Assembly: GCA_043805735.1 (NCBI GenBank)
Contig: JAZDHS010000004.1
Coordinates: 583 to 64,582, forward strand
Reading direction: 5' to 3'
DNA from: Candidatus Omnitrophota bacterium
Lineage (GTDB): Bacteria > Omnitrophota > Gorgyraeia > JAFGHF01
DNA: 64,000 nt
Part shown: positions 31,721 to 52,756 of the stretch, piece by piece
Numbering within the stretch: position 1 is the first letter of the stretch
How the letters are laid out: each line of letters opens with the position of its first letter
Program-made: the position numbers and the translations under genes
Notes under the pieces: model-generated
The model's input: the letters and a program-made list of their open reading frames with translations, nothing else
Database searches by the model: none
What the model was told of the DNA's origin: nothing

Positions 31721-31735
31721 ACTCACCAGGCGCGT

Positions 31736-33815: not shown

Positions 33816-33827
33816 CCCTAATACTTC

Positions 33828-33855: not shown

Positions 33856-33862
33856 GCAAACT

Positions 33863-35197: not shown

Positions 35198-35228
35198 TGT
35201 CCAATAAGAAAGAGCAAAAGAGGTGCCC

Positions 35229-36305: not shown

Positions 36306-36344
36306 GCTAAGCCTTTAATATAGGCTTGATTTGAAGGTACAGCT

Positions 36345-37145
36345 GTGAGGCTTAGGTGGCTGAAGAATTTAAACCCCGCCGTCAAAAGCATTATTGTTTT
36401 TACGCTTGTCGTTATACTCTTCGTTTTTTATATCCCGCTTGCTGAATTTATTGGTCCGCCGCTTTTATCTTTCTTTGCCCCGTTTTTCCAACTTGCCGCT
36501 GATGTGTCGGTCTCGGCCCGCACGATGCTGCAATTTCACAACCTCACCGCAGGTAACCAACAGTTAACCAACGAAATAGCTAACCTCAACGCGCAATTGG
36601 TCCATATGCAGGAGATATTGCGCGAGAATGATCGGTTACGCTCGCTCTGGTCATTGCCGGATCGCAGCGACTTCTCTTTACAGGTCGCTTTAGTCATCGC
36701 GGCCGACTCGTCCAATTGGACCGATACGATCACAATTGATAAGGGGACAAACAACGCGATCAAAAAAGGCGCGGCCTGTATTCTGGAGAACGCGTTGGTA
36801 GGAATGATCATCGAAGCACACTCATCCTCCAGTAAAGTGGCGCTACTCACCGATATTAACGCTAAAGTCCCGGCGATGATTCAGCGCACCAGGGAAGAAG
36901 GGCTGGTCTCGGGTGGAGTGGAAGGCCGACGTGGTATCTGTAAAATGAAATACCTACGGGATGTAGAGGTCGGAGACAAGGTTATTTCTTCGAGCCTGGG
37001 AGGAATGTACCCCAAAGGGCTCTTAATCGGTGAGGTTACCGCGGTGGTCGATGAAAAAAGTGATACCCAGTTTAAAACAGTCGAAGTCCGGCCGACCGTG
37101 GAATTGCATGCCCTGGAGGAAGTAATGGTGATTATCGGGCCATGA
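36345..37145 (+). CDS. mreC: Rod shape-determining protein MreC
   Basis: TM anchor, coiled coil, then the MreC beta-domain, immediately after mreB. Confidence 0.85.
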   Translation: MRLRWLKNLNPAVKSIIVFTLVVILFVFYIPLAEFIGPPLLSFFAPFFQLAADVSVSARTMLQFHNLTAGNQQLTNEIANLNAQLVHMQEILRENDRLRSLWSLPDRSDFSLQVALVIAADSSNWTDTITIDKGTNNAIKKGAACILENALVGMIIEAHSSSSKVALLTDINAKVPAMIQRTREEGLVSGGVEGRRGICKMKYLRDVEVGDKVISSSLGGMYPKGLLIGEVTAVVDEKSDTQFKTVEVRPTVELHALEEVMVIIGP

Positions 37146-37645
37146 AAGTACGGCTGTTTGTGCTTTTTATCCTGGCGCTGGGATTTGTGCTGGCGCAAAG
37201 TACGCTGGTGCGGGTGGTAACTCTTTTTGGGGTCAAGCCCGATATCGTCGTGATTCTGGTAATGTTTATCAGTCTCTGGTATGGCCGAATAAATGCCGCA
37301 CTCATTGGCCTATTCTGCGGATTTTTTGTCGAGATAACCTCGGGGTTGCCTGCCGGAGCGGCCCTGGGCCCTTATGTATTAGGCGGTTTAATCCTCGCCC
37401 ATCTTGCCAGTGTAGTTTGGTATACGCAATGGTATACTCAAAGAGTCGGCGGGCAAATGCTGATTGCTTTTTTGTTTACATTTACGATATATCTGTTCCA
37501 GTTCTTTCTGCTGCGCCCGGCGGCGATAGAGCTTTCCTTGCTTAGCGCCCTGGTCGGGATTATCCTGCCCGTCTCTTTGTATACGGCAGGAGTTTCGCCG
37601 TTATTATTTTATTTGTTAAACACAATAGCCGCCCCTTTACGGTGA
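37142..37645 (+). CDS. mreD: Rod shape-determining protein MreD
   Basis: Small polytopic membrane protein overlapping the mreC stop, in canonical position. Confidence 0.75.
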   Translation: MKVRLFVLFILALGFVLAQSTLVRVVTLFGVKPDIVVILVMFISLWYGRINAALIGLFCGFFVEITSGLPAGAALGPYVLGGLILAHLASVVWYTQWYTQRVGGQMLIAFLFTFTIYLFQFFLLRPAAIELSLLSALVGIILPVSLYTAGVSPLLFYLLNTIAAPLR

Positions 37646-37655
37646 GCCCGCTCCT

Positions 37656-39386
37656 ATGCGCATCGGTCTTTTAAAACGGATTACGATTGCCCTTTTTCTC
37701 TTTCTGATCGCCAGCCTCGCCTATAACCAGGTGATCCGCGGCCCCTACTACTTTCAGTTAAGCCAGAACAACCGCATTAAATTGATTAAAATGGATGCCC
37801 CGCGCGGTTTTATTTATGACCGGCAAGGCCGGGTAGTAGCGGGACTGCGCCTGGTCTTCAACGTTGCGGTGTTGCCCCAAGAGGTAGAGGATATCAAAAA
37901 AACGATTGCCGCGATCAGTCCTTTAGCCGGCGTTTCCGAATCGGCATTAATGCAATATTATAAGAATAACTTTTTTGCCCCTTTTCTTCCGGTCGTGATT
38001 CTCCACGATGTACCTAAAGAAAAAGCTATCCTTTTGGAGTGCCAGGAGTTTCGTATCCCGGGCCTGTTGATTCAAACTCAACCGCTGAGGAATTACCCAT
38101 ACGGCAAAAGTATCAGCCATCTCCTCGGGTATTTGGGTAAAATTACCAAGGAAGAACTGCGGCAGTTGAAGGAATATGGTGTTTGGGACCGCGATATCTT
38201 GGGTCGAACCGGAGTGGAAGGGCAGCTTGACCCGTTCTTAAGAGGTCAAACCGGCGGTAGACAAATAGAAGTGAACAATCGCGGCCGTCAGGTCCGGGAA
38301 TTGGGGGTAAAACAGCCGTTGCCGGGTGAGGATTTATATTTAACTATTGATGCTGAGCTACAGGCGTTGATCGGTCGTTTAATGGAAGGGCATAGCGGTG
38401 CCTGCGTAGTGCTTGATCCGCGCAACGGTGAAATTTTAGCCATGGTTAGTGAGCCCAGTTTTGACCCTCAGATTTTTGTGATGGCGCTGAACAATAAGAC
38501 CGAAGCGGCGCGAACAGTTTCACGCTACCTTAGTTCCGGCGAAGGCGTGTTGGTTAATCGGGCTATCTCGGGCGCATATCCCGCAGGTTCCATTTTTAAA
38601 ATCGTGGTCGCCGTCGCCGGCTTAGAAACTAATGCGATTACGCCCAATTCCACAACGCAATGCACCGGCAGCATCAGGGTGGGGAATCGTTCCTTTAATT
38701 GCTGGAAACTGGATGGCCACGGTACAGAGAATATCTATACTGCCTTGGCCCATTCCTGTAACGTATTTTTTTATCGCTTGGGCCTTGCGCTTGGGCCGGA
38801 TAAGATTGCCCTTTTTGCCCGTAGCTTTGGTTTGGGTGAGCGTTCCGGCATCGATCTATCCGCGGAAGCGGCCGGCAATGTTCCTTCAAAAATATGGAAA
38901 CTAAAGACTAAAAAAGAAAAATGGTACGATGGAGAAACCGCTAATCTGGCCATCGGGCAAGGATATCTTTTGGTCACGCCGCTGCAGATGGCACGGCTGA
39001 TTGCCGCCATTGCCAACGGCGGATATCGCGTTAGGCCGCATCTGGTCAAAAAGTTTGAGGATAAAGAAACAGCGGTAGTGCGGGAAAAGTTGGCGCTTAA
39101 ACCCTCCACTTTAGAAGTGATTAGAGAAGGGATGCGCATGGTTGTGCAAAATGATGACGGGACCGGCCACCGGGCGTATATTAGTGGAGTGCAGTGGGCG
39201 GCTAAGACCGGTACTGCCCAGGCTGGAACGGGAACGGCGCATGGGTGGTTTGGCGGATTCTATCCCTTTCATGATCCCCGCTTGGCCATAGTTGTTTTTT
39301 TGGAACACGGCGGAAGCGGAGGAGATGTACCGGCGCTCATCGCGCGAGAAATTGTCGAATATTTCCGGACCAATAAAGTGAACTAA
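37656..39386 (+). CDS. mrdA: Peptidoglycan D,D-transpeptidase MrdA (PBP2)
   Basis: PBP dimer domain and transpeptidase motifs SxxK (GSIFK), SxN (SCN) and KTG (KTGTAQ). Confidence 0.95.
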   Translation: MRIGLLKRITIALFLFLIASLAYNQVIRGPYYFQLSQNNRIKLIKMDAPRGFIYDRQGRVVAGLRLVFNVAVLPQEVEDIKKTIAAISPLAGVSESALMQYYKNNFFAPFLPVVILHDVPKEKAILLECQEFRIPGLLIQTQPLRNYPYGKSISHLLGYLGKITKEELRQLKEYGVWDRDILGRTGVEGQLDPFLRGQTGGRQIEVNNRGRQVRELGVKQPLPGEDLYLTIDAELQALIGRLMEGHSGACVVLDPRNGEILAMVSEPSFDPQIFVMALNNKTEAARTVSRYLSSGEGVLVNRAISGAYPAGSIFKIVVAVAGLETNAITPNSTTQCTGSIRVGNRSFNCWKLDGHGTENIYTALAHSCNVFFYRLGLALGPDKIALFARSFGLGERSGIDLSAEAAGNVPSKIWKLKTKKEKWYDGETANLAIGQGYLLVTPLQMARLIAAIANGGYRVRPHLVKKFEDKETAVVREKLALKPSTLEVIREGMRMVVQNDDGTGHRAYISGVQWAAKTGTAQAGTGTAHGWFGGFYPFHDPRLAIVVFLEHGGSGGDVPALIAREIVEYFRTNKVN

Positions 39387-39390
39387 CCCT

Positions 39391-40527
39391 ATGTTTGATC
39401 ATTATCGCCGCGATTTTGATGTGGTCTTATTTGTCAGCCTGTTGCTTATTTTTGCGATTGGCCTGGCCTTTTTACATAGCGCCAGTTATAAACGCTATTC
39501 GACACGGGAAGAGTATCTTCAGGAAAGCCTGGTAGTAAAGCAGATGTTGCGTTTTGTCCTTGCTCTCATTGCGGGGATTCTCGTAATCAGGATCGGCCAT
39601 CAGAAATTACTTGAATTTGCCTATGTTCTATATGGTCTGAATATTTTGTTATTAGTTTTGGTCTTACTTTTGGGCGAGACCAGGTTAGGGGCGCAGCGCT
39701 GGATTAAACTGGGGATGATTGGTTTTCAGCCTTCGGAGTTCAGTAAGCTCATCATCGTGTTTACCTTGGCCCGTTATCTTGGACAGAAAGAAAGCGCTTT
39801 AGGAAGAGATTTGTTTTGGCAGGGCGGTTGGCGCAATAGCGGGGTCTTGGCCAGCGCCTTTTTGCTGGTTGGCATTCCTTTTATATTAATTATGAAACAG
39901 CCGGATTTAGGCACCGCTCTTACCCTCGTTCCCATTCTTTTGACGCTATTGTATGTCTGGGGCGTCTCTTTTAAAACCCTAGCCCTGCTTTCGTTGCCCG
40001 CGGTTTTGGCTTCGCCTTTTTTATGGCAGATGCTTAAGCCCTACCAAAAAAGAAGAATTCTGGTGTTTATTAATCCTAATGCCGATCCCTTGGGAGCGGG
40101 CTATACGATTATTCAATCGAAGATTGCGATTGGCTCAGGGGGGTTATTCGGTAAAGGGTGGCTGGCCGGAACACAAAACCAATTGAATTTTTTGCCCGAA
40201 CGCCACACCGATTTTATCTTTTCAATAGTCGGGGAAGAGTGGGGGTTTATCGGGGCGGCATTACTTTTAGTTTTATACATTGTCTTAATCTCCCGGGCTT
40301 TTTTGATTGCCCAGCGTACTCTTTATTCATCATCTCGCCTTTTAGCCTGCGGCATAATTGTCGTGTTGGTATTCCAGGTAGTGGTCAATATCGCGATGAC
40401 GATGGGCCTGGTTCCGGTGGTTGGCCTACCTTTGCCGCTGATTAGTTATGGCGGCTCATCCCTGTTTATGACTGTTGTTTCGCTGTCCTTACTCTTAAGT
40501 ATCGGGATGAGAAGGTCAGTATTCTAA
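39391..40527 (+). CDS. rodA: Peptidoglycan glycosyltransferase RodA (SEDS)
   Basis: SEDS family (FQPSEF, DFIFS) following mrdA. Confidence 0.9.
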   Translation: MFDHYRRDFDVVLFVSLLLIFAIGLAFLHSASYKRYSTREEYLQESLVVKQMLRFVLALIAGILVIRIGHQKLLEFAYVLYGLNILLLVLVLLLGETRLGAQRWIKLGMIGFQPSEFSKLIIVFTLARYLGQKESALGRDLFWQGGWRNSGVLASAFLLVGIPFILIMKQPDLGTALTLVPILLTLLYVWGVSFKTLALLSLPAVLASPFLWQMLKPYQKRRILVFINPNADPLGAGYTIIQSKIAIGSGGLFGKGWLAGTQNQLNFLPERHTDFIFSIVGEEWGFIGAALLLVLYIVLISRAFLIAQRTLYSSSRLLACGIIVVLVFQVVVNIAMTMGLVPVVGLPLPLISYGGSSLFMTVVSLSLLLSIGMRRSVF

Positions 40528-40606: not shown

Positions 40607-40635
40607 TTGACACTTGGTGCATTTTGTGCTATACT
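40607..40635 (+). promoter_or_regulatory. Consensus sigma70 promoter (TTGACA-17-TATACT) in the rodA-downstream intergenic region
   Basis: Perfect -35 and near-perfect -10 with 17-nt spacing, read directly from the sequence. Confidence 0.55.
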
Positions 40636-40641: not shown

Positions 40642-40800
40642 GTCATTGACAAAAAGTAACGTTTGAAAAAGGCAAACCATTTGTAAGAATGGGGCGCAAA
40701 GCCACAGGTCCCGTAACGTAACAGGGATAGCTGGGTTGCCAAGCGTAGACAAAGAATATCAACATCCGGCCTTTGGCTTTGCCAAAGGCCTTTTTAATTG
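40642..40800 (+). ncRNA. Candidate ~160-nt small RNA or structured 5' leader ending in an intrinsic terminator
   Basis: Predicted TSS about 7 nt after the -10. The transcript ends with hairpin GGCCTTTGGC-TTT-GCCAAAGGCC followed by TTTTT at about 40769-40800. The listed ORF start at 40736 would have to read through this terminator. Confidence 0.4.
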
Positions 40801-40816: not shown

Positions 40817-41158
40817 ATGATTAAAAGACCAAACAATCCTAACGGTAATGCCCATCGCGTGATTACTTTCTTGACCCGCGATGAAATTGACTTTCTGGAT
40901 AAGATTGGCAAAGACGCCCTTTTTAGCTCCGGGATCAAACTTTCACGCAGTAAAATTATTTCCGCGATGGTTAATGTAATTCGTAAGCTCAATATTCAAG
41001 CCGATGGCCTGCATTCGAAAAAAGAGCTGGAGCATCGCATTATCGAAACGATAAAAAACCTGAATCTGACGCTGGCCGATAAATCCAAAAGGCAGCAGGA
41101 AAACAAAACGCCGCCAGCGAACGAGCATGAGGCTAAGGAACATGAACAAGCTTTTTAA
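40817..41158 (+). CDS. Hypothetical ribbon-helix-helix-like small protein
   Basis: A beta-strand-like RVITFLT followed by two helices (RDEIDFLDKIGKD, SRSKIISAMVNVIRKL) suggests a CopG/Arc-type RHH, with a charged low-complexity C-terminus. The start was moved to the Met after the terminator hairpin. Confidence 0.5.
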   Translation: MIKRPNNPNGNAHRVITFLTRDEIDFLDKIGKDALFSSGIKLSRSKIISAMVNVIRKLNIQADGLHSKKELEHRIIETIKNLNLTLADKSKRQQENKTPPANEHEAKEHEQAF

Positions 41159-42032
41159 TGCGCTTACTATGACTAATCGCGGGATACGCTATAAAATGGC
41201 CATGGCCTTCACGCTGATGTCGGTTATTCCAATGCTGGTATTTGGGTATTTATTCCTGCACTACCTTTTTCCTCGGCTATCGTCTTTTTTGCACATTTCC
41301 TTAGTATTTATTTTTACGATACTTCTAATGATCGCCGGATACTATTTTGCCAAAAAGATTGTCTATCCGGTAATTAAACTCAGCGCTCATGCCCGCGGTA
41401 TTGCCGATGGCAACTTCGATAAAAGATTAGATATGCCGCGTGATGACGAGATCGGCGAATTGGGCAGCACCTTGAATCACCTTTCCTTAAAACTAAAAGA
41501 GAATATTCGGGAAAATACTTTACTGCAGCATAAGACCAGAGAGCTTACCGTGCGCGATGAACTTACCGGTCTCTATAACGAACGCTATATCCGTGAGCGC
41601 TTAGACGAAGAGATTAAGCGGGCGGTGTCCTATCAACGTCCCTGCTGTTTTATGATGATGGAAATAAACCACTTCGTCAGTTTACGCGCAACCAGGGACG
41701 AGAAAGAAGCTGATCAGCTGCTGAAGAAGATCGCGCAAATCTTGCTGGCCGCGACTACGCCAATTGATAAAGTAGCGCGCTTAAACGAGACGCGGTTTAG
41801 CGTTATTTTTCCGGAAAAAAATAAAAAACAATGTCTGGAGGTTACCCAAAATTGCCGAAAAGATATTGCACGCTTGGTCCAAAGCACTTCCGGGTGGGCC
41901 GGATTAAGCATTAGCGCAGGCATTAGTTCGACACCTCTTGACGGAACTACTGTGGCCGAGCTCATCGACCAGGCGCTCTCTTTTATGGAAAGGGCCGGCA
42001 ATGATGGCGAAAATAGCATTATTATTTCCTAA
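41127..42032 (+). CDS. Membrane-anchored HAMP-domain protein with a degenerate GGDEF domain
   Basis: N-terminal TM segments, HAMP (VIKLSAHARGIADGNFDKRLD), then a GGDEF fold (DELTGLYNERYI...SISAGIS...ERAGNDGEN). The catalytic GG(D/E)EF is replaced by NETRF and the DxD metal site is absent. Start may be ATG 41142 or 41169. Confidence 0.75.
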   Translation: MRLRNMNKLFNALTMTNRGIRYKMAMAFTLMSVIPMLVFGYLFLHYLFPRLSSFLHISLVFIFTILLMIAGYYFAKKIVYPVIKLSAHARGIADGNFDKRLDMPRDDEIGELGSTLNHLSLKLKENIRENTLLQHKTRELTVRDELTGLYNERYIRERLDEEIKRAVSYQRPCCFMMMEINHFVSLRATRDEKEADQLLKKIAQILLAATTPIDKVARLNETRFSVIFPEKNKKQCLEVTQNCRKDIARLVQSTSGWAGLSISAGISSTPLDGTTVAELIDQALSFMERAGNDGENSIIIS

Positions 42033-42099: not shown

Positions 42100-43158
42100 A
42101 TGTATGAGATGCAGAAATTACTCAGGATGGTGGTGGAGAAAACGGCGTCCGATTTACATATTACGGCTGGGGCTCCGCCGCAGTTGCGTATCGATGAAGT
42201 GCTGGTTAATGCCGGCGAACAGATCTTGATGCCCGACGATACCAAGAAACTGACCTATAGCCTTTTGGCCCAGGAAGAAATTAAGGAATTCGAGGAGAAT
42301 CTGGAATTGGATTCGTCGTTCGGAATCGAGGGCCTGAGTCGTTTTCGTCTCAATGTCTACCAGCAAAGAGAAGCGGTGGGCTGTGCGATCAGAAGAATTC
42401 CCTTTGAGATTATGACGTTGGAGCAATGCGGCTTACCGGTAAAAATAGTGACGCAGATGTGCCAAAGGACAAAAGGCCTGGTACTGGTAACCGGGGCGAC
42501 GGGAAGCGGAAAATCCACTTCGTTGGCGGGGATGATTAATAAAATTAATCAGGAAAGGCGCTGTCATATTATTACCGTAGAAGATCCGATCGAATATACC
42601 TTTAAGAATTTAAAGTCCTTAATCGAACAGCGCGAAGTCGGCAAAGATACCCATTCCTTTGGCGATTCGTTAAAACATATACTTAGACAGGATCCCGATG
42701 TCATTTTAGTAGGGGAAATGCGCGACTTAGAGACTATCCAGTCGGCGCTGAATATCGCCGAGACCGGCCACCTGGTCTTTGCGACCTTGCATACCTCCGA
42801 TGCGGTTCAGACGGTGAATAGAATCATTGATGTCTTCCCCGCCCATCAGCAGCAACAGGTGCGCACACAGCTATCGTTTGTGCTGTTGGGAATTATGGCC
42901 CAGCAGTTAATACCCCGTCCCGGCGGGGGAAGAATATTGGCAACTGAAATACTAGTGGCCAATCACGCTATTCGCAGCCTGATCCGCGAGGCCAAAACGC
43001 ACCAGGTCTATTCAGTTATTCAAACCGGTCTCAAAGAAGGAATGAGTACGATGAACCAGGCGTTATATGAACTGGTGTTACGTAATATTATTTCACAGGA
43101 CGAGGCGATGCTGCGCACTACCGAACCCAAAGACCTAGAGCGATTGTTTAAAAGCTAA
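42100..43158 (+). CDS. pilT: Type IV pilus retraction ATPase PilT
   Basis: 352 aa secretion ATPase without an N-terminal MshEN domain. Walker A GATGSGKST, Asp/His boxes, and a PilT-type C-terminus (AIRSLIREAK). Confidence 0.9.
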   Translation: MYEMQKLLRMVVEKTASDLHITAGAPPQLRIDEVLVNAGEQILMPDDTKKLTYSLLAQEEIKEFEENLELDSSFGIEGLSRFRLNVYQQREAVGCAIRRIPFEIMTLEQCGLPVKIVTQMCQRTKGLVLVTGATGSGKSTSLAGMINKINQERRCHIITVEDPIEYTFKNLKSLIEQREVGKDTHSFGDSLKHILRQDPDVILVGEMRDLETIQSALNIAETGHLVFATLHTSDAVQTVNRIIDVFPAHQQQQVRTQLSFVLLGIMAQQLIPRPGGGRILATEILVANHAIRSLIREAKTHQVYSVIQTGLKEGMSTMNQALYELVLRNIISQDEAMLRTTEPKDLERLFKS

Positions 43159-43173: not shown

Positions 43174-43635
43174 ATGGAAGCACGTAAAGACCCACATGCA
43201 TTTCGCGAGCAGCTCGGCGAGCTGCTCTTACAAAGAGGCGTGATTAATTCCGAGCAGCTCAAGCATGCCCTGGAGCTGCAGAGTGAGGGTAATATGCTCT
43301 TAGGGGAGATATTGTCTGAGCTTGGCTATGCCTCCGAGGAAGATATTGTCCAGGCGCTAGCGTTACAACATGATTTCCCGTATTTGCCATTGGCCAATTA
43401 TGAGGTTGAGGCGGAAATTATCAAGTTAATTCCGGAGGAATTAGCGCGTCGCTACCATATTCTACCCGTAGATAAAATGGGCGATATCTTAACCGTGGTT
43501 ACCGATAATCCGCTGGAGCGCTCATTTTTCAAAGAGATCGAAGCGCTGACAAAATGTAAAATTGAAATATTTGTCTCAACGTCTAGAGAAATCAAAGAGG
43601 CGATTGAGCGCTATTATAGCGAAAAGAAAAAGTAA
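43174..43635 (+). CDS. Standalone MshEN / T2SSE_N-domain protein (candidate c-di-GMP receptor)
   Basis: 153 aa made only of the GspE/PilB N-terminal fold. It carries a tandem 24-aa motif, QLGELLLQRGVINSEQLKHALELQ, a 5-aa spacer, then LLGEILSELGYASEEDIVQALALQ. This closely matches the published MshEN c-di-GMP-binding consensus RLGxx(L/V/I)(L/V/I)xxG(L/V/I)(L/V/I)xxxxLxxxLxxQ. Confidence 0.75.
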   Translation: MEARKDPHAFREQLGELLLQRGVINSEQLKHALELQSEGNMLLGEILSELGYASEEDIVQALALQHDFPYLPLANYEVEAEIIKLIPEELARRYHILPVDKMGDILTVVTDNPLERSFFKEIEALTKCKIEIFVSTSREIKEAIERYYSEKKK

Positions 43636-43652: not shown

Positions 43653-45365
43653 ATGCCTAGATCATTAAAAGAACAATTAGTGGCTATCCTTACCGAGAAC
43701 AAACTGCTTTCCCAAACGCAGCTGGAGCAGGCGCTGAAGCTGCAAAAGGAAAAAGGGGGACGCCTGAGCAACATTCTAATATCTTTAAAATTTATTCAGG
43801 AAAAAGATTTAATGCTGGCCTTAAGCAAAAGCTTGAATATTCCTCCGATTAATTTGCAAAAGATTGAGATTAAGCCCGAGGTGATTAAAGTTATTTCTGA
43901 AAAAGTAGCCCGGCATTATCAGCTCATCCCGATTGCGAAGATGTCCAATAGCCTAACCGTAGCGGTGAGCGACCCCTTGAATATTTTCGCGCTTGACGAT
44001 ATCCGGGCGCTGACAAACTTCAAAATTAAATCGGTGCTCAGCACCGAAGAAGACATTAAACATGCGATTAATAAATATTATTCCAAGGATGCGCTAGATA
44101 TTGTCAAGGATGTAATCAAAGATAAAGAGGCAAAGATAGAGACCATTACCCAACAAGAAGCAACGGTGGATACCAAGGCGCTTCTGGAGATGATTAATGA
44201 GGCGCCGATCGTCAAGATTACCAACATGATTTTGCAGGAAGGGATTAAGAGGAAATCCAGCGATATCTTAGTTGAGCCCTTGGAAAAGACGATGCAGATA
44301 CGCTATCGTGTCGATGGTATTTTGGAGCTTGGCGAGGCTCCGCCACGGAGCATGCATGATGCCATTGTGACCAGGATTAAAGTTATGTCGCGTCTGGATG
44401 TGGCCGAACACCGCCTGCCGCAAGATGGAAGATTCAAAGTCCAGCTGCCCGGAAAAGAAGTCGATTTTCGCGTCTCCGTGCTTCCTTCGAGTTTTGGCGA
44501 AAAACTGGCCCTGCGTATTTTGGATAAGAGCACGCTGATGTTAGACGTCGATAAGTTGGGGCTGGAAGAACAACCGCTCTCAGTGCTGAAAAAATGCGCC
44601 CAGCGTCCACATGGGATGATTTTAGTTTGCGGCCCGACCGGCTGTGGCAAAACCACGACCCTTTATTCTGTGCTTAAATACATTGATTCTATTGAGGATA
44701 ACTTAGTAACCGTAGAAGATCCGATCGAATATCTTTTGGATGGAATCAACCAGGTAACGGCCGCTCCGGAAATCGGGCTGACCTTTGCCGCGGCGCTGCG
44801 TTCTATTTTACGCCAGGACCCGGATATTATCATGGTCGGAGAAATCCGAGATTTTGAAACTGTCGATATCGCGATTAAGGCCGCGCTGACCGGCCATTTG
44901 GTCTTAAGCACCTTGCATACTACCGATGCGCCGGGATCGCTGGTGCGCCTGGCGAATATGGGTGTGGAACCGTTTTTGATTACCGCGTCCTGTCTGATGG
45001 TGGGCGCGCAGCGGTTAGTCCGCGTGCTTTGTCCGGAATGCAAGGAAACATATCTGGCAGTGCCGGAGCTAAAGAAAAAGTTGGGAATAAAAAACGACAA
45101 AGAAATTACTTTCACCCGGCCCAAAGGCTGTGCTAAATGCGGCAACAGCGGTTACAAGGGCCGCATTGCCATCATGGAGTCATTGGAGATTACCGCTCAG
45201 ATTAAGGAGTTGATTTTACAGAAAGCTCCCGAGGCACATATCAAGAATGCTGCCCGCAAGGAAGGTATGCGCACGCTGCGGGAGAATGGTTTGGCGATAG
45301 CAATGAAAGGAATTACATCAGTCGAAGAAGTGCTCAGGGTTACCGCTACGGACGAAGAGATATAA
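43653..45365 (+). CDS. pilB: Type IV pilus assembly ATPase PilB/GspE family (paralogue 1)
   Basis: 570 aa with an N-terminal T2SSE_N-like domain, Walker A GPTGCGKTTT, tetracysteine CPEC...CAKC, and Asp/His boxes. Confidence 0.9.
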   Translation: MPRSLKEQLVAILTENKLLSQTQLEQALKLQKEKGGRLSNILISLKFIQEKDLMLALSKSLNIPPINLQKIEIKPEVIKVISEKVARHYQLIPIAKMSNSLTVAVSDPLNIFALDDIRALTNFKIKSVLSTEEDIKHAINKYYSKDALDIVKDVIKDKEAKIETITQQEATVDTKALLEMINEAPIVKITNMILQEGIKRKSSDILVEPLEKTMQIRYRVDGILELGEAPPRSMHDAIVTRIKVMSRLDVAEHRLPQDGRFKVQLPGKEVDFRVSVLPSSFGEKLALRILDKSTLMLDVDKLGLEEQPLSVLKKCAQRPHGMILVCGPTGCGKTTTLYSVLKYIDSIEDNLVTVEDPIEYLLDGINQVTAAPEIGLTFAAALRSILRQDPDIIMVGEIRDFETVDIAIKAALTGHLVLSTLHTTDAPGSLVRLANMGVEPFLITASCLMVGAQRLVRVLCPECKETYLAVPELKKKLGIKNDKEITFTRPKGCAKCGNSGYKGRIAIMESLEITAQIKELILQKAPEAHIKNAARKEGMRTLRENGLAIAMKGITSVEEVLRVTATDEEI

Positions 45366-45379: not shown

Positions 45380-47110
45380 GTGGAGGTTGAAACTAAAGTG
45401 CCCAGGCTTTTGACGTTAAAAAAGAAGCTCAATGAGATCCTGCTGGAAAATAAATTAATCAGCGCCAAGGACCTTGAAAAAGCCCTAAGTATCCAGAAGG
45501 AAAAAGGGGGGCAGTTGAGCAAGATTCTTGTTGAGCAGAAAATGATTTCCCAACAGGATTTGATGGTTTGCCTGGGTACACAGCTGGGAGTGCCGCCAAT
45601 CAATCTGGCCAGGTATAAAATCGATCCCGAAGTAGTTAAATTCATCCCCGAACGTATTGCCCGCCATTATATGGTCATACCAATATCCAAAATTAAGAAT
45701 GTGATTAGCGTGGCCATGGCCGATCCGTTGAATATTTACGCCTTAGACGATATCAAGGTCTTAACTAAATTAGAGGTCCAGACGGTCATTACTACGCCCG
45801 ACGATATTATGCAGGCAATTGACAAATATTATAAGGGTAAAATACAAGATATGGCCGATATTATCCAAAAGGCGCAGGAAACGGTGGAACTGCAGACTGT
45901 GGAAGAAGGGCCAATGCCGGGCGATATTGAAGAGCTGACTAAGGCCAGTGGAGAGGCGCCGTTGATTCAATTAGTCAATGTCGTGATTCACGAGGCCATC
46001 AAAAGTCGGGCCAGCGATATTCATATTGAACCGTTTCAGGAGCGCGTGCGTATCCGCTACCGTATTGACGGAATCTTGCATGATTCCTTTAACTTCCCCA
46101 CGAAAATCAAAAATGCCTTACTTACACGGATAAAAATTATGTCTAATTTAGACATCACCCAAAGACGTATTCCCCAGGACGGCCGGTTTAAAGTGAAGGT
46201 CGAAAATAAAGAAGTCGATTTCCGCGTCTCGGTGCTGCCTACCGCTTTCGGCGGAAAAATTGTGCTTCGGGCTCTAGATAAAGCCAACCTATCTATCGGT
46301 CTGGACCAATTAGGATTTTCAGCGCACACTTTAGTTAAATTTAAGGAAGCAATTGCTAAACCCTACGGCATGATGCTACTCACTGGGCCTACCGGTTGCG
46401 GTAAGTCCACTACCCTTTATTCCATTCTCAACCAGCTTAATTCCAACGATCGCAATATCGTTACTATTGAAGACCCAATAGAATATCAGGTGGAGCGGAT
46501 TACCCAAATTGCGGTCAAGCCCGAGATCGGCTTAACCTTTGCCAGCGGATTGCGCTCAATATTGCGCCAGAGTCCGGATGTAATCATGGTCGGTGAGATC
46601 CGCGACGGTGAAACCGCCGATATCGCCATTAAGGCGTCGCTGACCGGAGAACTAGTGTTGAGCACGCTGCATACCAACGATGCGGCTTCGGCAATTACCC
46701 GGCTGATCGATATGGGCGTGGAACCGTTTTTAATTGCCTCGTCCGTAATTATGGTGGCCGCGCAGCGGCTTTGCCGGCGGGTTTGCCCGCATTGTAAAGA
46801 GCCTTACGAGGTCGCCAAGTCCGTTCTGGATAGCCTGGAAATTTCCGCCCAAAAAAATACACTGTTTTATCATGGTAAAGGCTGCCCCCATTGCAATCAT
46901 ACCGGCTACTATGGACGGATGGGGACATTGGAGATTTTAACTGTTGACGACGCGATCAGAGAAATGATTATTAAGGGGGCCTCAAGCACACATATTAAAG
47001 ACTATGCCCGTAAGCACGGCATGAGGACGCTGCGTGAAAACGGTCTGGAAAAATTTATACAAGGCGAAACAACGCTGGAAGAAGTCTTGCGGATGACCGC
47101 TGAGGAATAA
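45380..47110 (+). CDS. pilB: Type IV pilus assembly ATPase PilB/GspE family (paralogue 2)
   Basis: 576 aa with the same architecture (GPTGCGKSTT; CPHC...CPHC). Its N-domain resembles that of paralogue 1. The start is GTG 45380 or GTG 45398 after GGAGG. Confidence 0.9.
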   Translation: MEVETKVPRLLTLKKKLNEILLENKLISAKDLEKALSIQKEKGGQLSKILVEQKMISQQDLMVCLGTQLGVPPINLARYKIDPEVVKFIPERIARHYMVIPISKIKNVISVAMADPLNIYALDDIKVLTKLEVQTVITTPDDIMQAIDKYYKGKIQDMADIIQKAQETVELQTVEEGPMPGDIEELTKASGEAPLIQLVNVVIHEAIKSRASDIHIEPFQERVRIRYRIDGILHDSFNFPTKIKNALLTRIKIMSNLDITQRRIPQDGRFKVKVENKEVDFRVSVLPTAFGGKIVLRALDKANLSIGLDQLGFSAHTLVKFKEAIAKPYGMMLLTGPTGCGKSTTLYSILNQLNSNDRNIVTIEDPIEYQVERITQIAVKPEIGLTFASGLRSILRQSPDVIMVGEIRDGETADIAIKASLTGELVLSTLHTNDAASAITRLIDMGVEPFLIASSVIMVAAQRLCRRVCPHCKEPYEVAKSVLDSLEISAQKNTLFYHGKGCPHCNHTGYYGRMGTLEILTVDDAIREMIIKGASSTHIKDYARKHGMRTLRENGLEKFIQGETTLEEVLRMTAEE

Positions 47111-47127: not shown

Positions 47128-48330
47128 ATGCCTTACTTTAAATATATCGCCAAGGATCAGGAAGGTAAAACCATTAACGCCACCCTGGAGTCCAAAGACA
47201 AAAACGGGGTCGTGGAATTGTTGCGCAAGAGAGACATGGTTATCCTCTCTATAGATGAAACGAAAGATAAACCCTTTAAGGTAAAAACCAGTGGCAGCGT
47301 CCAGATCGATGACTTGGTAATCTTTTCCCGCCAATTGGCCACGATGGTCGACAGCGGAATTCCCTTGGTTCAGGCCCTGGATGTATTGCAGGAACAAATC
47401 CAGAAGTCTTACTTTAAGGGCGTTATCGGCAGTTTACGCGATGGTATCGAGACGGGCAGCAGCCTTTCCGATGCGATGGCCCAGCACCAGCGGGTTTTTT
47501 CCGACCTGTTCGTGAATATGGTGCGTGCCGGTGAATCCAGCGGTATGCTTGATGATATTATGGAGCGCGTTGCCGATTATATCGAGAAAACCGCGGCCCT
47601 GCAGCGTAAAGTAAAATCCAGTTTAATTTATCCGGCGGTAGTCGTGTCTATGGCGATTGGAATTACGGTGATTCTACTGATCAAGGTAGTACCGACATTT
47701 AAAGGGATTTTTGATAGCCTGGGGGGAGAGTTGCCGATGTTAACCCAGATTCTAATTAATGTTAGTGATTTTTTACAGCATTACTTCATGTTTATTGTCG
47801 TCAGCCTGTTTGTATTGGGAGTGACAGTGGAGCGGCTTTCCCGCACCGCTAAAGGCCGGCTTTTTATTGACCGGCTGTTATTACGTTTGCCGGTTTTTGG
47901 TTTACTCTTGCGCAAAGTGGCGATTGCCCGCTTTTCGCGGACTTTGTCTACTTTAGTCAAAAGTGGTGTGCCCATTTTGAATTCCTTAGAGATTGTTTCC
48001 GCCACCGCTGGCAATAAAGTAATCCAAATGGCCGTGGAGCAGGTGCGCAATAGTATCCGCGAGGGTGAAAACATTTCCGAACCCCTATCGCGTAGTGGTA
48101 TTTTTCCTCCGATGGTCACCAGGATGATCGGAGTTGGGGAGCAAACTGGTGAATTGGAAAAAATGCTTTCTAAAATTGCCGATTTCTACGAAGAACAGGT
48201 CGATGTGGCAGTCAGCAGCATGACCTCACTTATCGAACCCCTTATCATTGTTGTACTTGGGGTGGTTGTCGGTGGCATTGTCGCCGCGATGTTCTTACCC
48301 ATCTTTAAGATTACCGAGCTGATCAAATAG
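47128..48330 (+). CDS. pilC: Type IV pilus inner-membrane platform protein PilC (GspF family)
   Basis: 400 aa with two GspF repeats and three TM segments, directly after the pilB genes. Confidence 0.9.
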   Translation: MPYFKYIAKDQEGKTINATLESKDKNGVVELLRKRDMVILSIDETKDKPFKVKTSGSVQIDDLVIFSRQLATMVDSGIPLVQALDVLQEQIQKSYFKGVIGSLRDGIETGSSLSDAMAQHQRVFSDLFVNMVRAGESSGMLDDIMERVADYIEKTAALQRKVKSSLIYPAVVVSMAIGITVILLIKVVPTFKGIFDSLGGELPMLTQILINVSDFLQHYFMFIVVSLFVLGVTVERLSRTAKGRLFIDRLLLRLPVFGLLLRKVAIARFSRTLSTLVKSGVPILNSLEIVSATAGNKVIQMAVEQVRNSIREGENISEPLSRSGIFPPMVTRMIGVGEQTGELEKMLSKIADFYEEQVDVAVSSMTSLIEPLIIVVLGVVVGGIVAAMFLPIFKITELIK

Positions 48331-48518: not shown

Positions 48519-49040
48519 ATGTTAAGGTACAATCGCAAAGGCTTTACATTAGTTGAAATCATGATTGTAGTTGCTATCATAGCTCTCTTAGCCGCGATTG
48601 CCATACCGAACTTGCTGCGCGCGCGTTTGAATGCGAATGAAAATGCGACCGTAAATAGTTTAAAGACTCTTTGCGCCGCAATGAATTCATTTGCCGGCAC
48701 TAACATCCAATCTGGTGTACCGACCTATCCGGCCGGGCTGGATAACCTGACTCCCAACGTGATTCTCTCTCCTGAGCCACCCTATCTAGATGTGGCCTGG
48801 AGTGACGCCGCTGGCCCTGTGCAGCGGTCCGGTTACTCCTACACCTATGCCGGGTCAGATGTAGATGGAAATGGGACCACCGAGAGGTTCTGGATTGACG
48901 CTATTCCGCTGTCATATCAAACCTCAGGTGTACGCAGTTTCTACATTGATGAAGGCGGTGTGGTGTATGGCGGTGATAACGCTGGTGCTGCTACCGGTGT
49001 TTATGGCACCCCCGGAGCGCCATATGTAGCTACGGAATAA
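48519..49040 (+). CDS. pilA: Type IVa pilin (prepilin with N-terminal methylation motif)
   Basis: Leader MLRYNRKG followed by FTLVEIMIVVAIIALLAAIAIP, with Glu5. 173 aa, one Cys, no C-terminal disulfide loop. Confidence 0.85.
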   Translation: MLRYNRKGFTLVEIMIVVAIIALLAAIAIPNLLRARLNANENATVNSLKTLCAAMNSFAGTNIQSGVPTYPAGLDNLTPNVILSPEPPYLDVAWSDAAGPVQRSGYSYTYAGSDVDGNGTTERFWIDAIPLSYQTSGVRSFYIDEGGVVYGGDNAGAATGVYGTPGAPYVATE

Positions 49041-49063
49041 TTAAGAGCAAGACAATCAGATGT

Positions 49064-49100
49064 AAAAAGGCGGTGGATGTTTCCACCGCCTTTTTATTTT
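49064..49100 (+). terminator. Rho-independent terminator after pilA1
   Basis: GGCGGTGGA-TGTT-TCCACCGCC hairpin followed by TTTTTATTTT. Confidence 0.8.
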
Positions 49101-49112
49101 TACAATTAATGC

Positions 49113-49142
49113 TTGATTTTTTACGGGATTCAGGTATTATAA
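49113..49142 (+). promoter_or_regulatory. Sigma70-like promoter (TTGATT-17/18-TATTAT/TATAAT) for the second pilin
   Basis: Read directly from the sequence between the terminator and pilA2. Confidence 0.45.
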
Positions 49143-49160
49143 TACTAACAATAACATAAT

Positions 49161-49694
49161 ATGGCCTATTATATTAAGATTAATAAAGAAAAAGGGTTTA
49201 GTTTAATAGAAATATTGATTGTTTCGGCAATTTTGGTCATTATGTCCACGATTGCTATACCGGCTTTACTGCGCCAAAGGCTTAATGCTAACGAGAGGGC
49301 AACGATAAAAAGTTTAAAAACACTCTACCTTTCTTTGAATTCTTTTGCGGCCAGAAATATCCAGGGTGGTATTGCGATCTTTCCCGCCAACCTTGATGCG
49401 CTGACTGCCAACCAGATTGCCTCTCCTGAGCCACCATATCTGGATGTAGCCTGGAGTGATGCCGCTGGCCAAATATTCAGATCCGGTTATCAATATAGCT
49501 ATCGTCCCTTTGATTCCGCTGACCCCGATGGTACCGCCGATCGGTTCTGGATCGACGCCATTCCTGCTGGCTATCAAAGCTCAGGTGTGCGTAGTTTCTA
49601 TGTTGACGAGGGCGGGGTAGTCTATGGTTTTGATAATGCCGGTATAGCCACGGGCGCTTATGGTATTCCGGCAGGTTGGGTTGCTGCGGAGTAA
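49161..49694 (+). CDS. pilA: Type IVa pilin paralogue (longer 12-aa leader)
   Basis: Leader MAYYIKINKEKG followed by FSLIEILIVSAILVIMSTIAIP. The C-terminal half is highly similar to pilA1 (SPEPPYLDVAWSDAAG, SGVRSFYxDEGGVVYG). Confidence 0.85.
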   Translation: MAYYIKINKEKGFSLIEILIVSAILVIMSTIAIPALLRQRLNANERATIKSLKTLYLSLNSFAARNIQGGIAIFPANLDALTANQIASPEPPYLDVAWSDAAGQIFRSGYQYSYRPFDSADPDGTADRFWIDAIPAGYQSSGVRSFYVDEGGVVYGFDNAGIATGAYGIPAGWVAAE

Positions 49695-49703
49695 ATAAAC
49701 CTG

Positions 49704-50669
49704 ATGAGTAAAGAAAAAATTATAATCGGTCTGGATATTGAGAAACATTCCCTTAACCTGGTGAAGTTGGCCAAAGGGGCTAGCGGTGAAATCAAACTGC
49801 TGGATTTCGCTAGCGTATCCTTAAGCCCGGAATTGGCCCCAGCGGAAAAGGCGCGCCAGCTGGAAAACTTTGTGCGCGCCAAGGGGATTAACGCCCTGGC
49901 CGTGAACGTCGGCATCTCCGGGGAAACGGTAGTAGTCAGGTATATTGATTTACCGAAGATGAAAAAAAACGAAATCTCCCAGGCCCTGGCCTATGAAGCC
50001 CAGCAGTATATTCCGTTTAAAATGGAAGAAGTAATTTTTGATTTTCATCCGCTCAACGTTGCCCCCACGGGCAATAACCGGATGAAGGTGCTTTTGGTCG
50101 CCGCCAAAAAACAAGCGATTCTCAATTTCATCAAGTCAATTCAGCAAGCCGGCCTTAGGCCTAATCTCATTGACGTCAATTCGTTTGCGCTGATTAACTG
50201 TTTCACCGTCAACGGGCCAAAAGTAAAAGAAAGCGATATCTACGCTGTCTTGAATCTCGAGTTTGACGTGGTCAATATTAATATTCTTCAGGGTGGGTTG
50301 CCTTTTTTTACCCGTGATATTTCTTTGGAAGAGGCCAATGCGATCTCGGCCGCAAAAGGCGAAGCAAAGGCGGAACTGTTTGCGCCGGCCATGCCGCTCT
50401 TAGCCAGTTTAATCCGTGAGGTCAAAATTTCAATTGATTATTTTGAGAGCGAATTTGAAAAACAGGTGCCAATATTATATTTAAGCGGAGCAGGCGCGAA
50501 GTTTCCGGAGCTGGTGCAGGCTTTTTCCAGCCAACTCGGCCGGGAAGTTTTGCTTTGGGATCCCTTGCGTACCTTTGCGGTTGATGCCGCGCTGGGTGAC
50601 AGGCAGTTACTAAAAGATACTTCTATACAATTAGCCTTGGCCAGTGGCTTGGCGTTACGGGGAATATGA
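49704..50669 (+). CDS. pilM: Type IV pilus assembly protein PilM
   Basis: Actin-like ATPase fold of about 320 aa, the typical PilM size. Confidence 0.8.
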   Translation: MSKEKIIIGLDIEKHSLNLVKLAKGASGEIKLLDFASVSLSPELAPAEKARQLENFVRAKGINALAVNVGISGETVVVRYIDLPKMKKNEISQALAYEAQQYIPFKMEEVIFDFHPLNVAPTGNNRMKVLLVAAKKQAILNFIKSIQQAGLRPNLIDVNSFALINCFTVNGPKVKESDIYAVLNLEFDVVNINILQGGLPFFTRDISLEEANAISAAKGEAKAELFAPAMPLLASLIREVKISIDYFESEFEKQVPILYLSGAGAKFPELVQAFSSQLGREVLLWDPLRTFAVDAALGDRQLLKDTSIQLALASGLALRGI

Positions 50670-51154: not shown

Positions 51155-51156
51155 AG

Positions 51157-52739: not shown

Positions 52740-52756
52740 CCAGAGATGCGCTTAAG

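Follow-up and report, generated by a model that had tools for sequence, protein, structure and literature searches.

A gene in the type IVa pilus cluster of a Candidatus Omnitrophota bacterium encodes an MshEN domain on its own, directly ahead of two genes for PilB extension ATPases, and it is probable (about 60% in our estimate) that this gene provides the type IVa pilus machine of Omnitrophota with a free-standing receptor dedicated to c-di-GMP. The solo protein keeps the binding pocket that the N-terminal domains of both PilBs have lost, which suggests that a detachable subunit does the sensing. Moreover, a c-di-GMP-I riboswitch in the leader of the operon independently ties the locus to c-di-GMP. 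Below, the window means the whole stretch of 64,000 nucleotides that was analysed, and all features given lie on its forward strand.

Identity and fold of the stand-alone MshEN protein

The gene (43174..43635) runs from the ATG at 43174 to the TAA at 43635, and its 153-aa, 17-kDa product is the MshEN domain alone, with no other domain attached according to profile searches and an AlphaFold2 (AF2) model. The first-pass annotation had described it in the same way, and searches of Pfam, NCBIfam and PDB sequences all support the placement in MshEN. The Pfam MshEN match (PF05157, E=7e-18) is restricted to aa 67-151, the C subdomain; together with the AF2 secondary structure it delimits an MshEN_C (T2SSE_N1-like) alpha/beta subdomain at 43372..43626. 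The NCBIfam model NF053729 'c-di-GMP_motif', whose cutoff is 38 bits, gives 58.0 bits (E=5.8e-16) over aa 13-65, spanning model positions 1-53 of 53. In the PDB sequence search the N domains of PilF, PilB and MshE were matched over the full length of the protein (5htl, E=9e-17).

The AF2 model (pLDDT 87.9) has helices at residues 7-20, 26-38, 43-50 and 55-66, followed by the alpha/beta unit, and thus presents the MshEN (T2SSE_N / GSPII) fold, an N-terminal four-helix bundle plus a T2SSE_N1-like alpha/beta subdomain. Its closest match in Foldseek is MshE with bound c-di-GMP (5HTL, 'MshE with cdg', TM 0.74/0.81), followed by the PilF GSPII-B structures with bound c-di-GMP; the C subdomain also gives weak matches to the EpsE-N1/EpsL and GspE/GspL complexes.

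The protein is not a PilB. With TIGR02538, whose cutoff is 675 bits, it reaches 77 and covers model positions 2-140 only, and no T2SSE ATPase domain was found with Pfam, so on sequence grounds the label 'PilB' given to members of the family by JGI is an over-annotation. Neither an EAL nor a PilZ domain was found in it with Pfam or NCBIfam; it therefore does not belong to the FimX or PilZ-type regulators, and it may nevertheless work like them.

Two c-di-GMP motifs with glycines that the solo protein keeps and both PilBs lack

The solo protein carries two 24-residue motifs: Motif I (aa 13-36; 43210..43281), QLGELLLQRGVINSEQLKHALELQ, read from the sequence, the NF053729 match and the family census, and Motif II (aa 42-65; 43297..43368), LLGEILSELGYASEEDIVQALALQ, read from the sequence and the family census. 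They stand exactly five residues apart, as first described, with the spacer SEGNM at 43282-43296. When compared with the strict consensus RLGxx[LVI][LVI]xxG[LVI][LVI]xxxxLxxxLxxQ, Motif I departs only by a Q in place of R at position 1, in agreement with the first-pass annotation. For Motif II that annotation had listed S7, Y11 and A12, which is correct, and had overlooked L1 (not R) and I17 (not L), so that the departures in the window protein are five and not three. The relaxed pattern of Wang fails only at position 1 of both motifs and at S7. An extended consensus, (R/K/L)LG, admits L at position 1 (PMC11731258), and Motif II agrees with it at L1, L2, G3, L6, G10, L21 and Q24; the solo protein was found to have the tandem 24-residue motifs of this kind, (R/K/L)LGxx[LVI][LVI]xxG[LVI][LVI]xxxxLxxxLxxQ, with the 5-residue spacer. 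Neither motif begins with Arg, and the Gln that opens Motif I is without tested precedent in any MshEN.

The claim that the N domains of both downstream PilBs have lost the conserved glycines holds in the window and in the family census. PilB-a (43653..45365) has V10 and K17 in motif I and S39, K46 and S60 in motif II, and PilB-b (45380..47110) has N18 and K25 in motif I and S47 and K54 in motif II; the respective motif regions, at 43674-43832 and 45425-45583, are devoid of the glycines. Since in the census Gly3 is present in both motifs of 80/80 distinct solo proteins as opposed to 0/80 of the first PilBs (PilB-a) and 0/69 of the second (PilB-b), this pattern is not peculiar to the source genome. 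Q24, L/I17 and L21 are likewise retained in the solo family, all 80 of whose distinct members also begin Motif II with L, and the hydrophobic positions 2, 6, 17 and 21 are conserved in the PilB N domains as well. NF053729 was rejected as a means of separating binders from non-binders, because both PilBs pass it too (45.3 and 46.1 bits against the cutoff of 38); position-specific counts were used instead.

In MshE, the substitution G11L abolishes binding and G40I makes it 72-fold weaker, and the non-binder XpsE has G11V and G40L. Going by these point mutants of another protein, the PilB N domains appear to be ligand-blind. In PilF, a hydrophobic first residue raises the affinity of GSPII-B (KD 6 nM), and the affinity of GSPII-C, with PLGEILVELGLA, is about 460 nM. 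From its residues, the solo protein is predicted to be a c-di-GMP binder.

The operon and its riboswitch leader

The operon opens with a promoter-like site at 40607..40635 (TTGACA-17 nt-TATACT with an upstream TG, 11 of 12 matches), and an identical element lies 5' of the aptamer in the related loci L005, L007 and L008. The aptamer of the leader (40662..40744) is of the c-di-GMP-I type (GEMM-I; clan CL00126), and it scores 69.5 bits (E=2e-14) with RF03167, above the gathering score of 59. It is followed after 23 nt by an intrinsic terminator (40768..40800), the expression platform, made of a 10-bp GC-rich hairpin and then TTTTTAATT; L005 and L007 have equivalent hairpins 3' of their aptamers. 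Aptamer and terminator do not overlap, which suggests an OFF switch. The invariant blocks GGCAAACC, CGCAAAGC and GCTGGGTTGCC of the aptamer alignment are common to its relatives, and the window aptamer has the canonical CGCAAAGCC core of the relatives assigned to RF01051, the 'GGC' variant RF03167 being nonetheless its best model. Canonical RF01051 aptamers are found at the equivalent position in L001, L005, L007, L008, L009 and L012 (39.7-59.7 bits, against 35), which makes seven distinct related loci with the window included, and one more lies upstream of a pilin gene. The riboswitch was found only in the clade of the window and at one other locus (1/11 in an Rfam scan of 11 other loci).

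After the terminator comes a small conserved ORF with no assigned family (40817..41158), of 113 aa if counted from its ATG; with the TTG at 40736 that is listed as its start, it would reach into the aptamer. It has no Pfam or PDB match, and genes of 108 and 85 aa occupy its position in L001 and L005. The following gene (41127..42032) encodes a membrane protein recognized by Pfam as HAMP plus GGDEF. By its active-site motif this protein does not qualify as an active diguanylate cyclase, GG[DE]EF being replaced by NETRF (41784-41798), and the I-site reads TPID instead of RxxD. With this GGDEF domain degenerate, no intact diguanylate cyclase was found within the window; GGDEF and PilZ proteins have been reported in the phylum.

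Next is the retraction ATPase PilT (42100..43158; 465 bits with TIGR01420, where 319 is the cutoff), immediately followed by the solo gene and the two extension ATPases. PilB-a, of 570 aa, has Walker A, Walker B, His box and the four cysteines all intact; its paralog PilB-b, of 576 aa, is 51% identical to it and has TGE/TGQ in the His box, not TGH. The platform protein PilC (47128..48330; Pfam T2SSF and NCBIfam PilC models) and the rest of the type IVa pilus cluster, comprising two pilins, PilM, minor pilins, PilO and the secretin PilQ (48519..55855), complete the set. Intergenic gaps in the window are of 14-17 nt.

Distribution and gene order across the phylum

The solo gene is typical of Candidatus Omnitrophota: relatives were found in 391 species genomes, and the family counts more than 4000 database proteins, unnamed or mislabelled 'PilB'. 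Ca. Velamenicoccus archaeovorus LiM is represented among the loci as L058. The order solo MshEN, PilB, PilB, PilC is present in every locus of sufficient length, so that the neighbourhood proves to be conserved across the phylum. Measured to the first start codon of the called PilB ORF, the distance from the solo gene to the first PilB ranges from an overlap to about 200 nt, with a median of about 18 nt, which suggests coupled expression. The first-pass annotation had located the gene between pilT and the pilB genes. This is true for the window and does not extend to the phylum, as only some 12 loci have pilT ahead of the solo gene, a clade-specific feature. The usual upstream gene encodes instead a degenerate HAMP-GAF-GGDEF protein, which in most loci abuts the solo gene (gaps of -9 to about 70 nt); in a motif survey of 75 relatives, nearly all of those beside the solo gene have GDNEF, GDDEF or SDHQF. 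The loci L003 and L004 have neither this gene nor pilT and still keep solo, PilB, PilB and PilC; the linkage to PilB is therefore the only invariant one. Expanded variants of the solo protein contain two or three binding bundles in an unchanged operon position, with Gly3 present in every extra motif.

Two long ORFs in L043 and L076 (1171-1174 aa), which look like fusions of PilB-a and PilB-b, are artefacts of masked N runs. A neighbour-joining tree of MshEN domains grouped the solo proteins in 38/60 bootstraps; it is poorly resolved, and some of its distances are saturated.

A proposed mechanism

According to the reading that we favour, the solo bundle would bind c-di-GMP in the manner of MshE and PilF. 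The backbone amides of Gly3 and of the next residue would form hydrogen bonds with guanine O6 and N7, and the Leu/Ile triads would stack on the bases, with the Arg of position 1 replaced by Gln or Leu. Binding may reorient the two subdomains, as in PilF GSPII-B, and the liganded protein would dock on the pilus motor and gate or tune extension. Candidate targets are PilB-a and/or PilB-b, at their putatively ligand-blind N domains, or the docking partner PilM. A precedent is that MshEN/GSPII domains couple the ATPase to PilMN. The second messenger would thus act twice on the locus, on transcription via the riboswitch and on the assembled machine via the solo protein.

A bolder version of this mechanism, which we think unlikely, would make the solo MshEN a dissociable subunit that chooses PilB-a or PilB-b for the PilM/PilC platform, or a mixed ring of both. 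The two motors differ in their His boxes, canonical in PilB-a and with the first histidine changed to Gln or Glu in PilB-b. If so, predatory or parasitic nanobacteria would exchange the motors of their attachment pili under second-messenger control, on top of regulating this operon by a riboswitch, and could tune the exchange by adding bundles to the sensor.

Alternative explanations

The solo protein could also be a c-di-GMP receptor whose output is not PilB, its partner being the HAMP-GAF-GGDEF protein, in soluble signalling or localisation, or else PilT, PilM or PilC, in which case it would lie next to pilB simply because both are pilus genes. We hold this to be possible, if on the unlikely side. 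The degenerate GGDEF gene is linked to the solo gene about as tightly as PilB is, pilT is directly upstream in the clade of the window, and the C subdomain is similar to N1, the domain by which proteins of the GspL/PilM type are bound. However, the two loci devoid of both the GGDEF gene and pilT retain the solo gene with its PilBs and PilC, and the complementarity between an intact pocket and lost ones is specific to the PilB N domains. Another view, quite improbable in our judgement, is that of a ligand-independent structural subunit or decoy, i.e. a free PilB docking domain that helps ring assembly or competes at PilM, with the motifs kept for the sake of the bundle. The conservation of positions 2, 6, 17 and 21 in PilB N domains that seem to be ligand-blind does indicate a structural role for these residues, and it is GSPII domains that mediate functional coupling to PilMN. 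Nevertheless, the PilB N domains keep the fold without the glycines, and yet all of the 80 solo proteins, in both motifs, and all added bundles have Gly3, which points to selection on ligand contact; besides, duplication of the binding bundle alone would make little sense for a pure docking module.

That the ligand is a different cyclic dinucleotide, such as 3',3'-cGAMP, is very improbable. This molecule is also bound by MshEN according to Wang et al. (PMC5013675), and the window aptamer scores best with the variant model RF03167; against this, its CGCAAAGCC core is canonical and common to the RF01051 relatives, and the recognition of guanine O6 and N7 by backbone amides in both motifs favours two guanines. 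There is practically no chance that the gene is spurious, be it a 5' piece of a split or frameshifted pilB, the remnant of a pseudogene or an N-terminal extension through read-through, even though the solo protein is 38% identical, ungapped, to the PilB-a N domain and several family members are annotated 'PilB' by JGI. The downstream PilB has a complete MshEN domain of its own, and across 391 species genomes and over 4000 proteins in databases the solo gene is conserved with a start and a stop of its own. Its frame relative to PilB-a is mixed (37/25/22), and solo proteins are on average 35% identical to their own PilBs, compared with 37% to Geobacter PilB. Recent fission from the adjacent pilB and read-through are ruled out by the mixed frames, the complete PilB N domain and the identity to Geobacter PilB.

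Significance

The role of MshEN/N1 in PilB is still poorly understood (review PMC11656802), and the Omnitrophota locus offers a natural split system in which c-di-GMP sensing could be studied separately from motor docking. If our main reading is right, it adds a third c-di-GMP route to the pilus motor, beside MshEN in cis and FimX/PilZ, and would exemplify a riboswitch and a protein receptor acting on one operon. The Omnitrophota are uncultured, ultra-small and probably predatory or parasitic, and their type IVa pili, on which the finding bears, are thought to mediate host attachment (PMC10066038). It also concerns the annotation of the more than 4000 proteins of the family that are now unnamed or misnamed.

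Comparison with known systems

The leader resembles other c-di-GMP-I riboswitches (RF01051 / RF03167) in passing the gathering score and in its terminator-type platform, and differs in that the 'GGC' variant model scores best despite the canonical CGCAAAGCC core. MshE of Vibrio cholerae (5HTL, PMC5013675) is like the solo protein in its two-subdomain fold, its tandem 24-residue motifs and 5-residue spacer, and both keep Gly3, Gly10, the hydrophobic triads and Gln24. In MshE, however, sensor and motor are one polypeptide and position 1 is Arg, whereas the solo protein is not fused to a T2SSE ATPase and has Gln or Leu. With PilF it shares the L1 of Motif II, as in GSPII-B, and 'G-L/Y-A' at positions 10-12, as in GSPII-C; all PilF copies are in cis on one chain, while in Omnitrophota the binding copy is separate and the cis copies on the two PilBs look ligand-blind.

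ATPase-free MshEN receptors of c-di-GMP and duplications of the bundle have precedents in PA3740 of P. aeruginosa (MshEN plus a divergent N1) and cce_1044 of Cyanothece ((MshEN_N)2), which are small and have no enzymatic domain (Wang 2016 Suppl. Table 4). For neither of them is a place before PilB in a pilus operon, or a pairing with ligand-blind PilBs, described; PA3740 has been linked to swarming and not to pili, which speaks against our main reading. The plain combination of MshEN_N and canonical MshEN_C alone is absent from that table. A search of the literature for stand-alone MshEN in pilus operons, or for Omnitrophota pili together with c-di-GMP, found no description.

The closest functional parallels are PilB-PilZ-FimX of Xanthomonas citri and FimX-PilB of Pseudomonas aeruginosa (PMC8389850), where the PilB N domains are motif-less, as here, the c-di-GMP input comes in trans and is docked on the PilB N domain, and a degenerate GGDEF is included, as beside the solo gene. 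Their sensor is a degenerate EAL with a PilZ-fold adaptor, whereas in Omnitrophota the candidate trans sensor and the PilB N domain are themselves paralogs, and the degenerate GGDEF belongs to a membrane protein of HAMP-GAF type that has no EAL. The first-pass annotation regarded the arrangement as one not usually described; this is too broad for c-di-GMP input to PilB in trans, which the FimX/PilZ systems (PMC8389850) already provide, and it applies to the identity of the trans factor. In principle, outsourced c-di-GMP sensing for PilB thus has precedents, and the novelty lies in a candidate trans factor that is itself an MshEN domain.

The stand-alone MshEN gene and its predicted fold

It is virtually certain that the pilus operon carries a genuine stand-alone MshEN gene. 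The ORF of this solo MshEN protein (153 aa) runs on the plus strand from the ATG at 43174 to the TAA at 43635, with both coordinates as in the first-pass annotation. The pilT gene (42100..43158, plus strand) ends 15 nt ahead of it, and the gene for PilB-a, one of two extension ATPase paralogs, follows after 17 nt. Pfam gives MshEN (PF05157, E=7e-18) as the sole domain, in agreement with the proposal that the protein has this fold only; the match spans aa 67-151, that is, the C-terminal subdomain alone, with the nucleotide-binding helices outside the model. The NCBIfam profile NF053729 'c-di-GMP_motif' (53 positions, cutoff 38) matches end-to-end over aa 13-65 with 58.0 bits, and both profiles place the protein in the MshEN family. 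In a PDB sequence search, the full-length matches were the N domains of Thermus PilF, Geobacter PilB, Myxococcus PilB and V. cholerae MshE (5htl, E=9e-17).

The AlphaFold2 model, made from 24 family members (mean pLDDT 87.9), shows helices at residues 7-20, 26-38, 43-50 and 55-66, followed by an alpha/beta unit. Its top Foldseek match in the PDB, 5HTL ('MshE with cdg'), bears out the assigned fold (TM 0.74 normalized to the query and 0.81 normalized to the target). It is followed by Thermus PilF GSPII-A, which does not bind c-di-GMP, the Xanthomonas PilB N domain in its PilZ complex, and structures of PilF GSPII-B with c-di-GMP bound. The C subdomain alone gave weak Foldseek matches to the EpsE-N1/EpsL and GspE/GspL complexes.

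c-di-GMP motifs and pocket residues

The published MshEN consensus is RLGxx[LVI][LVI]xxG[LVI][LVI]xxxxLxxxLxxQ (Wang et al., PMC5013675). Motif I (QLGELLLQRGVINSEQLKHALELQ) departs from it solely by a Q at position 1, and the spacer SEGNM between the motifs has 5 residues, both as originally reported. The departures S7, Y11 and A12 described for motif II (LLGEILSELGYASEEDIVQALALQ) are present, but they are not the only three, since L at position 1 and I at position 17 also deviate.

The PilB N domains differ from the solo protein at the glycines. Both window PilBs have lost them, as had been claimed: PilB-a has V10/K17 and S39/K46, and PilB-b N18/K25 and S47/K54; in PilB-a, S60 also replaces the final Gln of motif II. 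When distinct sequences are counted, Gly3 is present in both motifs of 80/80 solo proteins, 0/80 PilB-a and 0/69 PilB-b. In motif I this glycine gives way to T, I, Q, K or V in PilB-a and to I, N or V in PilB-b, and in motif II to S in PilB-a and to R, S or E in PilB-b. Among the solo proteins, 67/80 retain Gly10 of motif I and 74/80 that of motif II, and the PilBs mostly have Lys there; all 80 solo proteins retain Gln24 of motif II, where PilB-a has G, S or E. Positions 2, 6, 17 and 21 are hydrophobic in solo, PilB-a and PilB-b proteins alike and must therefore be partly structural, so that the glycines are what sets the solo protein apart. The split is relevant to binding, since the base-specific hydrogen bonds in MshE come only from the amides of Gly and its next residue (Wang et al., PMC5013675). 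Moreover, the MshE substitution G11L abolishes binding, G40I weakens it 72-fold, and XpsE, with G11V and G40L, is a natural non-binder. By analogy with these mutants and with XpsE, the N domains of PilB-a and PilB-b are predicted to be ligand-blind, and the solo MshEN is likely to bind c-di-GMP. The PilB N domains also exceed the NF053729 cutoff of 38 (45.3 and 46.1 bits), and thus automated annotation would label both as c-di-GMP binders.

Judging from characterized domains, the missing Arg at position 1 does not appear to be a strong objection to binding. An earlier study, discussed by Wang et al. (PMC5013675), indicated that changes at charged residues including Arg9 seemed to shift affinity fivefold at most. 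PilF GSPII-B, with K and L at position 1, binds at 6 nM and loses affinity when Arg is restored, and the PilF authors widened the consensus to (R/K/L) (PMC11731258). Within the solo family, position 1 is an invariant Leu in motif II and Gln in 69/80 proteins in motif I. Motif II of PilF GSPII-C (PLGEILVELGLA...), a domain that binds at about 460 nM (PMC11731258), closely resembles LLGEILSELGYA of the window protein.

A subgroup of solo-family proteins (P0059, P0070, P0088, P0092) has two or three tandem four-helix bundles followed by a single C subdomain. They contain four to six motifs, with Gly3 in every added one, and such genes occupy the same operon position (locus L087, 7001-7612; locus L088, 197-844). 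It is difficult to see why the ligand-binding module alone should be duplicated if selection did not act on ligand binding.

Family, gene order and origin

The window belongs to a Candidatus Omnitrophota MAG, and a protein identical to the solo MshEN is in the database as V1727_00620. An initial search gave 69 relatives with lengths of 86-215 aa, nearly all of them stand-alone and of 143-167 aa. A profile search raised the family to at least 4289 proteins, the best 120 of which are all 147-278 aa long. With each GTDB species represented by a single genome, relatives are encoded in 391 genomes; the 80 best loci, which include that of the complete Ca. Velamenicoccus archaeovorus LiM genome, are all from Omnitrophota or from Planctomycetia-labelled MAGs of the same assemblies. 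Solo-family proteins score far under the PilB equivalog cutoff (77 bits against 675 for the window protein). Several of about 150 aa (P0006, P0022, P0028, P0040, P0054 and others) are labelled 'type IV pilus assembly protein PilB' by JGI, which labels P0097 a methyltransferase, and NCBI calls solo-family entries hypothetical.

ORFs called in 87 sequences (the window plus 86 loci) were screened with the family HMM. In every locus on a long enough contig the order was solo MshEN, PilB-a, PilB-b, PilC, pilins and PilM, so that the neighbourhood is conserved in related genomes. Read-through or frameshifting does not account for the solo protein: the stop-codon frames relative to PilB-a are mixed (37/25/22), and the gaps to PilB-a, with each ORF begun at its earliest start codon, extend from overlap to about 200 nt, with a median near 18 nt. 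The solo MshEN is therefore encoded by a separate gene, probably co-expressed with PilB-a. Nor is it a recent fragment of the adjacent pilB, as its mean identity to the PilB-a and PilB-b N domains (35%) is no higher than to that of Geobacter PilB (37%). The solo MshEN is thus an old lineage, the origin of which was not settled by a neighbour-joining tree.

Walker A, Walker B and the four-cysteine motif are intact in both PilB-a (43653..45365) and PilB-b (45380..47110, plus strand). The His box is canonical in PilB-a (TGHLV...LHT), and its first histidine is replaced in PilB-b, across the phylum, by TGQLV or TGELV (57 loci), which suggests that the two are conserved, non-equivalent extension motors. 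PilB-PilB fusion ORFs of 1171-1174 aa, like strings of X in a GGDEF motif, were discarded as artefacts of masked N runs in the genome collection (L043 9036..9135; L076; L031).

Riboswitch leader and upstream genes

The operon is preceded by a near-consensus promoter-like site, TTGACA-17-TATACT with TG (40607..40635), a c-di-GMP-I-type aptamer 27 nt further 3' (40662..40744; Rfam RF03167, 69.5 bits, E=2e-14) and, after 23 nt, an intrinsic terminator with a 10-bp GC-rich hairpin and T tract (40768..40800), all on the plus strand. Behind this leader lie a small ORF, GGDEF* (a membrane protein with a degenerate GGDEF active site), pilT, mshEN, two pilB genes and pilC, which from 40817 to 48330 overlap or lie 14-67 nt apart, with no convincing internal terminator in that interval. 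Orthologous aptamers of the canonical type (RF01051) occupy the same place in L001, L005, L007, L008, L009 and L012, with identical promoter-like hexamers in L005, L007 and L008 and terminators 3' of the aptamer in L005 and L007. In L088, a c-di-GMP-I-GGC aptamer (5977..6060, plus strand) lies between pilC and a pilin gene (59.2 bits; gathering score 59). The window aptamer scores best with the 'GGC' variant model and carries CGCAAAGCC, as canonical relatives do, rather than the CGCGAA of the variant consensus. We take this to be the position that defines the variant, and for this reason treat the window RNA, with reservation, as c-di-GMP-responsive. Aptamer and terminator do not overlap, and pairing is possible between the 5' arm of the terminator (CUUUGGC) and the P1 3' strand (GCCAAG), so that an OFF switch would be the more likely design. 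The riboswitch shows that organisms with this locus use c-di-GMP and that the pilus operon is in its regulon; GGDEF and PilZ proteins have been reported in the phylum.

The first gene 3' of the riboswitch is a small conserved ORF (40817..41158, plus strand; 113 aa from ATG), with counterparts of 108 aa in L001 and 85 aa in L005 and no match in Pfam or the PDB; its listed TTG start at 40736, overlapping the aptamer, is probably wrong. The operon lies directly 3' of mreB-mreC-mreD-mrdA-rodA (35223..40527), as in L003 and L005. The large ORFs of the window are all on the plus strand (including about 8000..35000), and a tRNA lies at 107..181.

In most loci the solo MshEN gene is abutted on its 5' side, at -9 to about 70 nt, by the gene for a HAMP-GAF-GGDEF membrane protein about 475 aa long. 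GGDEF* orthologues occur in about 70 loci; the window protein (41127..42032, plus strand; 301 aa) is shorter and without the GAF domain. The active site is degenerate almost everywhere (GDNEF, GDDEF, SDHQF; NETRF in the window) and the I-site Arg mostly absent, and GGDEF* may be a pseudo-enzyme partner of the solo MshEN system. The placement between pilT and pilB holds in the window but not as a general feature: no more than about 12 loci, including the window, have pilT between GGDEF* and the solo gene, and this position of pilT is thus a clade feature. L003 and L004 have neither GGDEF* nor pilT, and rodA is directly followed by solo MshEN, PilB, PilB and PilC. An approximately 1370-aa GGDEF-AAA_16-HEAT protein with an AGDEF motif lies between pilT and the solo gene in L001 (3862-7983), L013 (4852-8985) and L039 (4712-8989); near the last is a 298-aa cyclase with canonical GGEEF and an RxxD I-site (3794-4690).

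A proposed trans-acting sensor and known systems

In the model that we favor, with a probability of roughly 0.6 as a whole, the solo MshEN bundle would bind c-di-GMP as in MshE and PilF, and binding would reorient the two subdomains, as in PilF GSPII-B (PMC11731258). Once liganded, the protein could dock either on PilM or on the PilB N domains, predicted to be ligand-blind, and so modulate pilus extension. The model is built on established features: the identity and fold of the domain, the conservation of its gene as an independent unit, the invariant two-PilB linkage, complementary pocket conservation and the riboswitch. Precedents exist for its steps. The GSPII domain beside the ATPase core of PilF is needed for stimulation by PilMN, N1-type domains bind GspL/PilM-like proteins, and motif-less PilB N domains of Xanthomonas accept a trans-acting c-di-GMP module (PMC8389850). 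The main rival retains c-di-GMP binding by the solo MshEN and differs in the partner, which would be PilM, the adjacent GGDEF* protein or PilT.

MshEN is an established, widespread receptor domain, present in one to four copies and fused to ATPases, glycosyltransferases, REC domains and others, and small MshEN proteins are already known, such as PA3740 (MshEN with a divergent N1) and cce_1044 ((MshEN_N)2) (PMC5013675). A plain stand-alone MshEN in a pilus operon is absent from the architecture catalogue of Wang et al. (PMC5013675), from a 2024 review of PilB cofactors (PMC11656802) and from the Omnitrophota genome papers searched. The arrangement had been called one not usually described, which is correct for the stand-alone MshEN in a pilus operon but not for c-di-GMP input in trans, since FimX and PilZ already supply it to PilB. 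What is new is that the trans factor would be a paralog of the PilB N domain, paired with two PilB paralogs predicted to be ligand-blind, together with the phylum-wide conservation of the solo MshEN, its bundle expansions and the riboswitch layer.
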